From a virus: 10,543 nucleotides of DNA. The stretch is taken from UHGV virus genome UHGV-0380619, one strand, 5' to 3'. Each line of letters opens with the position of its first letter. The first letter of the stretch is position 1. This document shows positions 2,226-4,339 of this stretch, one piece after another. Under the pieces are notes generated by a model. The model made no database searches and was not told the origin of the DNA. It worked only from the letters and a program-made list of their open reading frames with translations. The position numbers were made by a program, and so were the translations under genes.

Positions 2226-2302
2226 TGGCGCGTTGTACTGGATTCGAACCAGTGACCGATTGCTTAGAAGGCAATTGCTCTGTCCGGTTGAGCTAACAAC
2301 GC
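2226..2302 (-). tRNA. tRNA-Arg (anticodon UCU)
   Basis: Reverse complement folds as a cloverleaf: acceptor GCGTTGT/ACAACGC, anticodon stem ATTGC/GCAAT with loop CTTCTAA (anticodon TCT), T-arm ACTGG-TTCGAAT-CCAGT, 3' GCCA. Confidence 0.9.
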
Positions 2303-2315
2303 AGGGTACAGATAA

Positions 2316-2392
2316 TGGACCGCCATCGAGGACTCGAACCCCGCGCAACCAGCTTCGAAGGCTGGTGCTCTATCCTGATGAGCTAATGGCGG
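2316..2392 (-). tRNA. tRNA-Arg (anticodon UCG)
   Basis: Reverse complement: acceptor CCGCCAT/ATGGCGG, D-arm GCTC..GAGC, anticodon stem CCAGC/GCTGG with loop CTTCGAA (anticodon TCG), T-loop TTCGAGT, 3' TCCA. Confidence 0.85.
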
Positions 2393-2399
2393 TATGTGA

Positions 2400-2475
2400 T
2401 GGTGGCCCTTGCTGGATTTGAACCAGCGACCTGGCGATTATGAGTCGCTCGCTCTCACCACTGAGCTAAAGGGCC
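2400..2475 (-). tRNA. tRNA-Ile2 (anticodon CAU, lysidine type; alternatively tRNA-Met)
   Basis: Reverse complement GGCCCTTTAGCTCAGTGGTGAGAGCGAGCGACTCATAATCGCCAGGTCGCTGGTTCAAATCCAGCAAGGGCCACCA: anticodon loop CTCATAA, T-arm GCTGG-TTCAAAT-CCAGC. Closely resembles E. coli ileX as recalled. Confidence 0.85.
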
Positions 2476-2515: not shown

Positions 2516-2794
2516 TCATCCGTTCTGGCTGACTAAATCCTGTACTTCCCGAACCGTCTGCTCAAAACGTTCAGTCTCCAGCTCAACGCCAATTGCACGA
2601 CGCCCGAGCGCCAGTGCCGCTTTCACTGTCGAACCCGACCCCATGAAAAAATCTGCAATCAGGTCACCCGGACGACTGCTAGCGCTGATTATCTGCTGCA
2701 GCATTTCTGCCGGTTTTTCGCACGGATGTTTCCCGGGATAGAACTGCACCGGTTTATGCGTCCAGACATCGGTATACGGCACCTGCGCCGTCAC
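2516..2794 (-). pseudogene. Truncated N6/N4 DNA methyltransferase remnant (C-terminal portion only)
   Basis: Translation carries the C-terminal AdoMet-binding motif region (DLIADFFMGSGSTVKAALALGRRAIGVELE). No DPPY-containing N-terminal half; the reading frame closes at a stop at 2876-2878 and the first candidate start is GTG at 2794. Confidence 0.7.
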
Positions 2795-2852
2795 GCCAAA
2801 ATACCGCCGCAGTCGGCATTCACAACCACCAGCGCATTTAACGTTCAGCCAT

Positions 2853-2877
2853 AAAAAAACCCGCTCGCGGCGGGTTT
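2853..2877 (-). terminator. tR'-like intrinsic terminator downstream of Q
   Basis: On the minus strand: AAACCCGC-CGCGA-GCGGGUUU hairpin followed by U7 (plus-strand A7 at 2853-2859, hairpin 2860-2874). Confidence 0.55.
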
Positions 2878-2945
2878 AAGCTGTGTGGCGAAGTAACCAC
2901 TCTTAACATACTGACATACTTTTTGCGGACCGCACTAATCATTTT
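2878..2945 (-). promoter_or_regulatory. Candidate late promoter / Q-utilisation region (pR'-qut-like), position inferred
   Basis: Directly downstream of the Q stop. On the minus strand there are tandem -10-like hexamers TATGTC and TATGTT (plus-strand direct repeat ACATACT-G-ACATACT at 2906-2920), followed about 40 nt later by the terminator. No convincing -35 found. Confidence 0.25.
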
Positions 2946-3326
2946 TTACTTTTTTAGCAGCCAGTCGTCCATCTCCAGTCTTACCCCCAGCACAGACAAA
3001 CATCCGTCAATAAACCCTTCGGCTATCTGCATCTCAATTCGTATTGCTTTTTCGCTTTTCTTTCTCGTCCTGGCTATCTGTCTTTTTGATATTCGCAACA
3101 AATAATGAGCAATGAGAAGCGAATACTCCTCAGGTTTTTTCTGCTTCAGACGAGCAAGACAGTTTTCAATGATAAGTCCGTCATCATCGCAGCAGGCCGG
3201 ACGTGGTTTAGTGGCAGATGGTAAAAGTCCTTTGAATCCGGCAGCGATCGGAGAATAGTCCACCCCGGTGTTACCACTTGCAGCCCATGCCCCCCAGCGT
3301 TCAAGAACCATCTGAATATCACGCAT
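2946..3326 (-). CDS. Q: Late-gene antiterminator Q (phage 82/21 / QuuD-like family)
   Basis: ATG at 3326 (MRDIQMVLERWGAWAA...) preceded by GGAGAAAG; the track's upstream start at 3341 is TTG. Cys-rich motif ACCDDDGLIIENC. Position immediately upstream of the tR'-like terminator and late region. Confidence 0.8.
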   Translation of the reverse strand: MRDIQMVLERWGAWAASGNTGVDYSPIAAGFKGLLPSATKPRPACCDDDGLIIENCLARLKQKKPEEYSLLIAHYLLRISKRQIARTRKKSEKAIRIEMQIAEGFIDGCLSVLGVRLEMDDWLLKK

Positions 3327-3343: not shown

Positions 3344-4339
3344 TCAGGCCAGCACGCCAATTGCCAGCGCACGATCGATAAAACGAAATATCAGCTCCAG
3401 CTGGGAGCCATACTTCTCTTCAAATGCCACGGTATCCGCATGCAGCTCGTCGTGATGCTTTCTGCACAAAGGCAACACAAAGAGGTCATGCGCTTTTGTA
3501 CCCATTCCCCCCTGACCGTGGCCTATCAGGTGGTGGGGATCATCAGCTGGCTTTCCACAACATGCACACGGCTGTGTCTTAACCCAGCGCGTGTACTTTT
3601 CATTAACCCAGCGGCGACGTTTTGGGCGTAACATAAAAGACTCCGGCGACTCCGGATCCACTTTCAGCGCCAGCACCTTTTTCGCTTTATCCTGGATAAT
3701 GCTGGTGGCAGGAACCGAAGGAACAAGGTCACTCTCCCGGGTGACAGACGGCACAACAGGCTTCGGTAATCTCAGTGCCTTACGGGCTGCACTTTCCGGT
3801 AAGGCATCCGCCAGGTCATTACGAATCAGCCACCAGCACAGTTCCGGCATTGTCACAACGTGACTGTCATCAAAACCGAGATCACGGCGCACAACAGATA
3901 ACACCCAGCGGGCACAGTTATCCGTTGCCATTGATTCCAGCCGTTCCGTGAACTGATCGCGCAACTGGTTATCGCAGTGCCAGCACAGACGGATTGCGCC
4001 CGGAGCGTGCCGCATTGTGGTCATGTTCTCGCTGTGCCAGTCGGAATGAGGCCACTGGCAGCCTTTTTCACGAAGTAACCAGCTTTCAAGACATTCCACG
4101 CCACCAGCACGACGGATCACTGCCTCATTGCGGAACACGGCCCGAACGGCAGGATCATCCGCCAGCGGTTGTGATGCCGCCGGAACGGCACCACTGGCGA
4201 AAGATGAATAACGCTCCGGCTCAGGCTCCAGCAGGACACGCCCCTGCATAAACAGGGGCATCAGCTCTGAACCTGGCCTGAACAATACGATCCCCATACG
4301 CGGGGCAATTTCAGGGGTCAGTAGTGCTCTCACAGTCAC
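3344..4339 (-). CDS. DUF968-family phage protein with HNH-like Cys/His motif (YdfU-like)
   Basis: 331-aa ORF. C-terminal CACCGKPADDPHHLIGHGQGGMGTKAHDLFVLPLCRKHHDELH motif. Sits immediately upstream of Q as ydfU does in Qin. Start uncertain: the first codon at 4339 is GTG; internal ATGs are possible. Confidence 0.7.
   Translation of the reverse strand: MTVRALLTPEIAPRMGIVLFRPGSELMPLFMQGRVLLEPEPERYSSFASGAVPAASQPLADDPAVRAVFRNEAVIRRAGGVECLESWLLREKGCQWPHSDWHSENMTTMRHAPGAIRLCWHCDNQLRDQFTERLESMATDNCARWVLSVVRRDLGFDDSHVVTMPELCWWLIRNDLADALPESAARKALRLPKPVVPSVTRESDLVPSVPATSIIQDKAKKVLALKVDPESPESFMLRPKRRRWVNEKYTRWVKTQPCACCGKPADDPHHLIGHGQGGMGTKAHDLFVLPLCRKHHDELHADTVAFEEKYGSQLELIFRFIDRALAIGVLA

Follow-up and report, generated by a model that had tools for sequence, protein, structure and literature searches.

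Which letters between a Q antiterminator gene and the terminator downstream of it make up the late promoter, the site for Q and the pause? The question is raised by the viral genome UHGV-0380619 (10,543 nt, one strand; "the window" denotes this whole stretch), in which a minus-strand Q gene is followed, after a 68-nt gap (2878-2945), by an intrinsic terminator. An initial annotation had tentatively read this gap as a pR'/qut-like arrangement, in which the hexamer TATGTC would serve as the -10 element and a second -10-like hexamer, TATGTT, would induce the sigma70-dependent pause at which Q engages. On balance, we favour reading this gap and its flanks as a late regulatory cassette from a lambdoid prophage, with its parts re-mapped to a palindrome, an extended -10, a start at A2901, a pause module and the terminator. 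The idea of a late promoter, a Q-loading region and a short terminated leader lying between Q and the terminator is thereby retained, and the assignment to the two hexamers is given up, the conserved parts being located beside and between them. The conserved anatomy of the region, the covariation of the palindrome with the helix-turn-helix (HTH) of Q, the transcription start in a homologous module and the terminator were observed directly.

Promoter and start site in a family of modules

A Q-protein search of viral contigs yielded 80 loci (63-100% identity), for which the DNA after each Q gene was laid out, and a pattern scan for the module added 120 further loci. Column counts given below refer to 71 distinct modules, register counts to 64 distinct spacers and terminator counts to 116 distinct modules. 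A pattern scan of genome contigs returned mostly random matches across phyla, with the true module at nine enterobacterial loci only. In the relatives of the window, the region is composed of the conserved block TAgyGCGGTCCGCA, exactly 18 variable bases, the block TAAGAGTGGTyAC and then CTTAa with the terminator. The palindrome-N18-TAAGAGTGG pair was present on the Q strand in 59 of the 81 loci found via Q alone, with constant spacing, and the distance of the module from the Q stop codon ranged from about 15 nt up to 2.9 kb. The features of the window, with positions relative to the predicted start, are as follows.

2946-3326, minus strand: Q antiterminator gene, 126 aa, with ATG at 3326 and stop codon TAA at 2948-2946
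2942-2947, minus strand: A-tract at -46 to -41, overlapping the Q stop codon; putatively UP-element-like
2924-2933, minus strand: type-specific palindrome GCGGTCCGC(A), candidate Q-binding element (QBE); the 9 bp GCGGTCCGC lie at 2933-2925 (-32 to -24) in a slot of -32 to -23
2920-2923, minus strand: AAAA tract at -22 to -19, which is AAAA or TTTT across the family
2918-2913 and 2910-2905, minus strand: hexamers TATGTC and TATGTT of the initial annotation, within a 7-nt direct repeat AGTATGT at 2920-2914 and 2912-2906
2908-2916, minus strand: extended -10 TGtCAGTAT at -15 to -7, with TG at 2916-2915, one base, and the hexamer CAGTAT at 2913-2908
2901, minus strand: predicted +1, the A of TAAG[A]G, by homology to DLP12 of Escherichia coli K-12
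2893-2905, minus strand: near-invariant block TAAGAGTGGTYAC / TAAGAGTGGTTAC at -4 to +9
2889-2904, minus strand: candidate sigma70 pause module AAGAGT-GG-TTACTT-CG, with AAGAGT at -3 to +3, GG at +4/+5, TTACTT at +6 to +11 and the putative pause site at C+12/G+13
2876-2880, minus strand: conserved CTTAA at +22 to +26
2853-2877, minus strand: intrinsic terminator tR' from a terminator scan, with stem 2877-2870 / 2864-2857, a 5-nt loop and a U-run at 2859-2853

Within the variable spacer, T at -12 was found in 67 and A at -11 in all of the 71 distinct modules, neither of them being fixed by the search pattern, and the three middle positions of the hexamer were free. T at -7 and G at -6 were invariant in the modules found via Q alone. 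Conservation of T-12, A-11 and T-7 around a free middle is the signature of a real -10. Comparison of registers by the presence of A at the second and T at the sixth hexamer position pointed to the same place: 62 of the 64 distinct spacers have both letters in the CAGTAT register, which lies 5 nt downstream of that of TATGTC, compared with 22 in the TATGTC register and 9 in the TATGTT register. Upstream of the hexamer, positions -22 to -20 were exclusively and position -19 almost exclusively A or T, and A was enriched at -45 to -41 (41-54 of 71 modules per column). The phage 21-like placing, with a -10 at spacer positions 6-11, was also considered and was ruled out by the conservation and by the mapped start.

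The start was mapped in the homologous module of the K-12 prophage DLP12, where it is located at U00096.2 576452 on the plus strand (NC_000913.3 577229). It is a primary start in Cappable-seq, and an independent differential RNA sequencing (dRNA-seq) study recorded 576452-576453 as a Class I start (TAP-enriched, leading edge of transcription). This start lies exactly 7 nt past the T at -7, and neither of the two K-12 lists contains one 7-9 nt further downstream. The offset of 777 bp from U00096.2 to NC_000913.3 was checked on the neighbouring strong start 576081, which is an A 7 nt past a TATTAT. As the K-12 and window sequences align without a gap from the palindrome slot to +26, the start predicted for the window is A2901, which both hexamers precede. 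No entry for the K-12 locus is found in the supplementary data of Adams 2021, SMRT-Cappable-seq or ROSE. A weak extra 5' end (Class III) was recorded at this locus (L083, NC_000913.3 ~577215-577282), 14 nt upstream of the main start.

Both hexamers of the initial annotation are present, although their starts are 8 bp apart, with 2 nt between them, and not 9. They are located between the Q stop codon and the terminator as described; "just after" the stop codon is loose, TATGTC beginning 27 nt past it, and the distance to the terminator, given as about 40 nt, is 27 nt from the end of TATGTT to the stem and about 45 nt to the T-run. TATGTC matches TATAAT at 3 of 6 positions without the critical last T at -7, and its register is -10-like in only the 22 spacers counted above, which argues against its use as a working -10. 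TATGTT fits better, with 4 of 6 matches, among them T-12, A-11 and T-7. Measured against the homologous mapped start it occupies -10 to -5, upstream of the transcript, and therefore cannot serve as a transcribed pause element. The remark that no convincing -35 could be identified was borne out by promoter prediction, as a consensus promoter scan gave no sigma70 promoter in 2878-2945.

The tandem arrangement was examined for chance occurrence. The window contains TATGTYNNTATGTY, the exact pattern, only once, and it appeared in 0 of 200 shuffles, a test picked after the pattern was seen, and the generic TAnnnT-N2-TAnnnT occurs 2 times in the window against 2.25 expected. An octamer repeat of at least 7 of 8 positions was observed in 1 spacer among 60 distinct family spacers, namely that of the window, against a mean of 0.91 after shuffling of the free positions (P(>=1)=0.60). 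Furthermore, the hexamers are not conserved in modules with the same palindrome and related Q proteins. Judged by these sequence comparisons, the AGTATGT tandem repeat is a lineage-specific chance filler in the variable spacer that happens to overlap the -10: TATGTC contributes the TG of the extended -10 motif, and the -10 hexamer ends with the TAT of TATGTT. The case is a caution that -10-like hexamers picked by eye can sit one register off the real elements.

Palindrome, candidate pause block and terminated leader

The slot at -32 to -23 contains at least nine different sequences across the family, eight of them palindromic or near-palindromic. The classes are GCGGTCCGC (the window), GCGTACGC, TACGTACGTA (DLP12), TACGATCGTA, TACAATCGTA (imperfect), TCGTTACGA, TGTTATAACA, TGGAATTCCA and TGTCATGACA. 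Each of these nine pairs with a distinct second-helix motif in the C-terminal-proximal HTH of Q, without a clear exception among 80 distinct pairs; K(K/G)(D/S)EK.IRI occurs with GCGGTCCGC, KCSDGTIRK with GCGTACGC and CSDGYIGKR with TACGTACGTA. Classes that differ in the palindrome are 82% identical in the N-terminal part of Q and 43% identical in the HTH segment, and the link between palindrome and HTH holds with Q ending 41 nt or 2.9 kb upstream of the module. Since the palindrome changes with the HTH segment of Q, it is likely, by covariation, to be the Q-binding element. In the Q protein of phage 21 (Q21), S93, K94 and H95 contact DNA; they align with S80, K81 and R82 of the window Q, in the helix preceding the second HTH helix. 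In a literature search, itself limited, no description of the palindromic element was found; the QuuD, QBE and IS019 literature searched gave no description of the palindrome/pause architecture, and full-text matches to the motif sequences were unrelated primers only. In many relatives (loci L029, L040, L052, L083, L088-L121 and others) the module is located 0.6-2.9 kb downstream of Q with other genes between (nmpC and IS5 in DLP12), and the displaced modules still bear the palindrome matching their own Q.

The block TAAGAGTGGTTAC shows at most 1-2 substitutions in the modules found via Q alone and occurs in all nine QBE classes. From it extends the sequence AAGAGT-GG-TTACTT-CG, which matches lambda AACGAT-GGG-TTAATT-CG (taken from NC_001416) at 13 of 16 positions with one gap; T+10 was found in 61 and G+13 in 70 of the 71 distinct modules. 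For lambda, PMC5001585 defines what makes up the pause: a -10-like hexamer, a discriminator element (GGG), an AT-rich stretch and a pause site at C/G. By this resemblance the block may act as the pause module of the window, a proposal whose chances we consider about evenly balanced, and it is a better candidate than TATGTT.

The leader RNA predicted from 2901 to the terminator has a length of about 47-49 nt. The computed fold of 2901-2850 (-18 kcal/mol, z=-3.1) consists of a small hairpin at the 5' end and a G+C-rich terminator of 8 bp with seven U after it. A terminator-like hairpin was present at most 125 nt from the start in 93 of the 116 distinct family modules, most of them ending at +40 to +69. 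The CTTAA preceding it is conserved to different degrees in its columns (C+22 in 57, T+23 in 70, T+24 in 57 and A+25 in 71 of the 71 modules). At the K-12 locus, the dRNA-seq study that recorded the start also recorded IS019, a 67-nt small RNA (sRNA) candidate and the counterpart of the terminated RNA. Comparison with Rfam gave isrK at 18.3 bits (threshold 50) and the Trp leader at 21.6 bits (threshold 41), with only the terminator hairpin aligned confidently, and both were rejected.

Taken together, the locus has the make-up of a lambdoid Q-dependent late cassette: a Q gene upstream on the same strand, a promoter with a start mapped in a homologue, a Q-type-specific upstream element (by covariation) and a terminator followed by late genes. 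We propose that sigma70 RNA polymerase would start at 2901, with the palindrome at -32 to -24 substituting for a -35 element. Once about 10 nt of RNA have been made, sigma region 2 would re-bind the -10-like AAGAGT and, by the rule known from lambda, the complex would stall near +12 (C2890). Q, a PF06530 protein with a plain HTH, would bind the palindrome just upstream and transfer onto the stalled polymerase, and the polymerase carrying Q would then pass the terminator and transcribe the tRNA genes and the lysis cassette. In the absence of Q, transcription would stop after a short RNA, of which the K-12 counterpart was detected as the sRNA candidate IS019. For the window phage, which is of the PhiR49_2 type, we infer the binding of Q to the palindrome, the pause and its position, and the antitermination from sequence.

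A broader claim may be attached to this scheme, namely that a large PF06530 subfamily uses a cis design new with respect to the three studied Q systems. In this design, a symmetric palindrome of 9-10 bp in the -35 slot would be read by two Q protomers through an HTH like that of sigma region 4, and Q would both replace the -35 contact, so activating a promoter devoid of a -35, and load on a sigma70 complex stalled unusually early, at an RNA of about 10-12 nt, with a pause overlapping the start. We regard this generalization as rather doubtful. If it is true, the nine or more natural pairs of Q and palindrome on an invariant scaffold would represent ready-made orthogonal antiterminator switches. 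The family is also a natural experiment, in which the promoter, pause and terminator scaffold is constant and a 10-bp palindrome and the recognition helix of Q vary together, so that the rules of Q-DNA recognition and the loading geometry become testable. This Q type and promoter module are common in many E. coli prophages, including long-tailed Stx2a phages. As toxin output of Stx2 (Shiga toxin 2) phages depends on the late promoter and Q, the correct placing of promoter, Q site and pause matters for models of toxin expression.

Alternative readings of the region

Several points weigh against the cassette as we have drawn it. The invariance of the block in the larger set follows largely from the search pattern, and only the set found via Q is unbiased. 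The start predicted for the window phage and the GCGGTCCGC class was taken over from a module that differs in palindrome and spacer. The window has C at -12 in place of the family T, and a better hexamer, TATGTT, lies 3 nt downstream, with which the start could shift to about 2898. The covariation of palindrome and HTH could partly reflect co-inheritance of linked DNA, and a palindrome of 9-10 bp is short for two HTH protomers, the QBE of phage 21 being a direct repeat. The pause candidate overlaps the start and lies 9 bp from the -10, an offset without precedent (lambda, 12 bp; phage 21, 13 bp; phage 82, about 20 bp). Finally, a published DLP12 study (Rueggeberg et al. 2015), cited in PMC7918800 for RpoE control of the lysis operon, attributes this promoter to sigma-E.

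The conservation of +1 to +26 might serve a trans-acting small RNA, like StxS, in place of a pause module, which is compatible with the promoter and QBE model. The K-12 counterpart is a small RNA candidate, a 5' hairpin is predicted, the terminated pR' RNAs of Stx phages are Hfq-dependent small RNAs, and conservation reaches +26, past any pause module. However, the invariant stretch begins at -4, before the transcript does, and the agreement with each element of the lambda pause suggests that the DNA itself is what functions. The predicted hairpin pairs GUGGU at 2900-2896 (+2 to +6) with GCCAC at 2889-2885 (+13 to +17); it was rejected as a conserved RNA structure, its pairs being invariant or mismatched (one pair is mismatched in 18 of 71 modules) and without compensatory changes. 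We therefore consider the small RNA reading unlikely.

A related question is whether the window lineage keeps the cassette architecture and uses TATGTT (2910-2905) as its -10, with a start near 2898. As a hexamer TATGTT is the better one, with its 4 of 6 matches to TATAAT including T-12, A-11 and T-7, whereas CAGTAT in the family register has C-12. CAGTAT nevertheless keeps A-11 and T-7 and gains the canonical TG at -15/-14 (2916-2915), a known compensation for a weak hexamer. Moreover, the family keeps the -10 at a constant distance from both the palindrome and the pause block, and a start at 2898 would fall deeper in the pause element. Such a lineage-specific shift appears quite improbable, and we retain CAGTAT.

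The most conserved element of the module could itself be the promoter, TGnTAAGAG(T) being an extended -10 with a start near 2893 and the palindrome, then at about -40 to -31, an activator site. TG one base upstream of TAAGAG is found in every module, which is the canonical geometry of an extended -10. TAAGAG is however without T-7, both K-12 maps start at TAAG[A]G and show no start 7-9 nt downstream, the uniform invariance over 13 bp is unlike a -10, of which the middle drifts, and the block matches the lambda pause module and not a promoter. We consider this reading very unlikely.

The tandem repeat invites a further comparison, in which the octamers AGTATGTC and AGTATGTT would form a direct-repeat QBE of the phage 21 kind, with two 8-bp subsites abutting the -10. 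The phage 21 QBE, ATTGAGCA/AATGAGCA, has an 8-bp period and ends at -12, the repeat of the window has the same period, and the window Q is a distant relative of Q21. Against the mapped start, however, the repeat of the window lies at -19 to -4 and not at -27 to -12, and modules with a Q 63-77% identical and with the same recognition-helix motif have unrelated spacers (repeat score at most 6/8). It is also the palindrome and not the spacer that changes with the HTH of Q, and the window Q is without the loop of about 24 residues that Q21 inserts in the minor groove. The window showed no direct repeat at -27 to -12 and its Q no loop-bearing HTH. This leaves the octamers little credence as a QBE, and the palindrome remains our candidate.

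Equally little can be said for a promoter read by sigma-E, with which Q would then work. Some spacers carry TCTGA or TCTGT at -9 to -5, and the -35 region of the DLP12 promoter is reportedly needed for Q-dependent expression. The latter would be explained equally well by the palindrome being the QBE. The -35 slot, in which a GGAACTT site would be expected, is occupied by the type-variable palindrome, and the element of a sigma factor should not vary with the Q type. A conserved TAnnnT and a pause module like that of lambda are characteristic of sigma70. Furthermore, the family does not have the conserved GGAACTT-like -35 about 16 bp before a TCTGA-like -10 that a sigma-E promoter would call for, TCTGA-like pentamers being present in only part of the spacers, and the genomic SELEX list of RpoE holoenzyme sites has none at essD. 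The published RpoE control of the DLP12 lysis operon, as cited in PMC7918800, speaks for sigma-E.

The model of the initial annotation, with TATGTC as the pR' -10, a start near 2906 and TATGTT as the sigma70 pause repeat, is hardly credible: both hexamers exist, their exact tandem pattern is unique in the window and the 13 bp from the start of TATGTC to TAAGAG equal the -10-to-pause-element distance of phage 21, but TATGTC is without T-7, the two registers are -10-like in 22 and 9 of the 64 spacers, both hexamers precede the mapped start of the homologous module, repeats of this kind are no commoner in the family than by chance and the 8-bp offset would put TATGTT at -4 to +2.

Known Q systems and the surrounding locus

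The hexamer finding is ordinary, and the architecture of the family is a moderately interesting variant of a known system. Among the studied systems, phage 21 has a late cassette annotated with TTGACA as the -35, a QBE of direct repeats at -27 to -12, a -10 AACACT, a pause element TAAGCTG at +2 to +8 and a leader of about 47 nt. Shared with the window are a Q in PF06530 and the order of Q, promoter, QBE (a candidate in the window) between the -35 region and the -10, terminated leader of about 45-50 nt, tRNAs and S21-type holin; the early pause element of phage 21 has its putative counterpart at the same place in this order. CTTAAG at +21 to +26 of phage 21 (L082 1394-1399) also lies at a similar distance from the start as the family CTTAA at +22 to +26. 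In contrast to the consensus -35 TTGACA and the direct-repeat QBE of two 8-bp subsites in phage 21, the window has no -35 and a palindrome at -32 to -23, and its pause candidate AAGAGT lies at -3 to +3 and not, as TAAGCTG, at +2 to +8. Q21 is 162 residues long, has a long loop within the HTH and aligns with the Pfam profile (118 positions) at positions 3-90 only. In the 126-residue window Q, a plain turn of about 5 residues joins the two helices.

The lambda pR' sequence reads TAAATT-TGACTC-A(+1)ACGAT-GGG-TTAATT-C(+16)G (NC_001416) and has, in the same order as the window, a -10-like hexamer, a G-rich discriminator element, TTAnTT and CG. It differs in a Q of an unrelated family and in the position of the module, which begins at +1 with the pause at +16 in lambda and at -3 with a predicted pause near +12 in the window. 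A good -35, a non-palindromic QBE and a leader of 194 nt further distinguish lambda.

The unit of K-12 DLP12 (QuuD, essD promoter and IS019) is the same module, with identical TAAGAGTGGTTAC, spacing, a TATGCT -10, the leader and the terminator, and Q_DLP12 is reported, in work cited by PMC7918800, to control the lysis cassette. Its QuuD is about half identical to the window Q, its palindrome is TACGTACGTA, the module is located 2.9 kb from quuD, past nmpC and IS5, and published work assigns the promoter to sigma-E.

StxS resembles the putative leader RNA of the window in being a short constitutive late-promoter RNA ended at tR', but it belongs to another Q/pR' type, and its 258 nt are trimmed by processing to 74 nt. 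HnrS, a 66-nt prophage small RNA, was considered as a product of the module and rejected, as Sp10 of the Sakai strain has a DUF1133-type antiterminator and no TAAGAGTGGTYAC block. In Sp10 (L326 1566-1700), a DUF1133 antiterminator of 184 residues has downstream of it a TTGACG promoter-like site and, no more than about 120 nt away, a window-like terminator, with a predicted RNA of about 66 nt. The RNA of the Sp10 unit may be HnrS, which would then be the pR' RNA belonging to a different family of Q.

Escherichia phage PhiR49_2 shares 99.4% identity with the window, and in it the counterpart of the window Q carries the annotation antitermination protein Q. The window Q gave a full-length match to the Pfam profile PF06530 (E=1.6e-52), and its residues 8-86 align with the Q21 structures (PDB 6p18/6jnx; E=7.5e-8), a distant similarity. 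A single-sequence AlphaFold model of the window Q had a pLDDT of 46, too poor for use.

The genes on the minus strand are arranged in the order DUF968/YdfU (4339-3344), Q, the 68-nt gap, the terminator, a truncated methylase fragment, three tRNAs, the S21-type holin, DUF1327 and lysozyme. In long-tailed Stx2a phages (LC5678xx records) the Q module has about 97% DNA identity to that of the window, and this similarity ends just downstream of the terminator.

2812-2844, minus strand: mosaic junction just past tR', where similarity to the Q module of Stx phages stops at 2844 and similarity to the methylase/tRNA module begins at 2812

The Q-module similarity ending at 2844 is that to the Stx2a phages, and as it stops just past the terminator, Q, the gap and the terminator move together as one unit. 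The methylase fragment (2516-2860, minus strand) comprises the C-terminal part only of an N6/N4 DNA methylase (135-220 of the 221 positions in the Pfam profile) and is thus a recombination remnant and not an intact gene. The tRNA cluster (2226-2475, minus strand) encodes tRNA-Met(CAT), tRNA-Arg(TCG) and tRNA-Arg(TCT) and is placed downstream of the terminator and ahead of the lysis genes, an arrangement shared with Stx phages; no stx genes follow it in the window. The DUF968/YdfU gene (3344-4339, minus strand), whose stop codon is close upstream of the Q start, has a weak match to an HNH nuclease domain. In addition, an 8-nt direct repeat AAAAAGTA is present on the minus strand at 2947-2954, at the Q stop codon, and at 2917-2924, at the start of the spacer, the two copies being 30 bp apart; it is probably due to chance in A-rich sequence.

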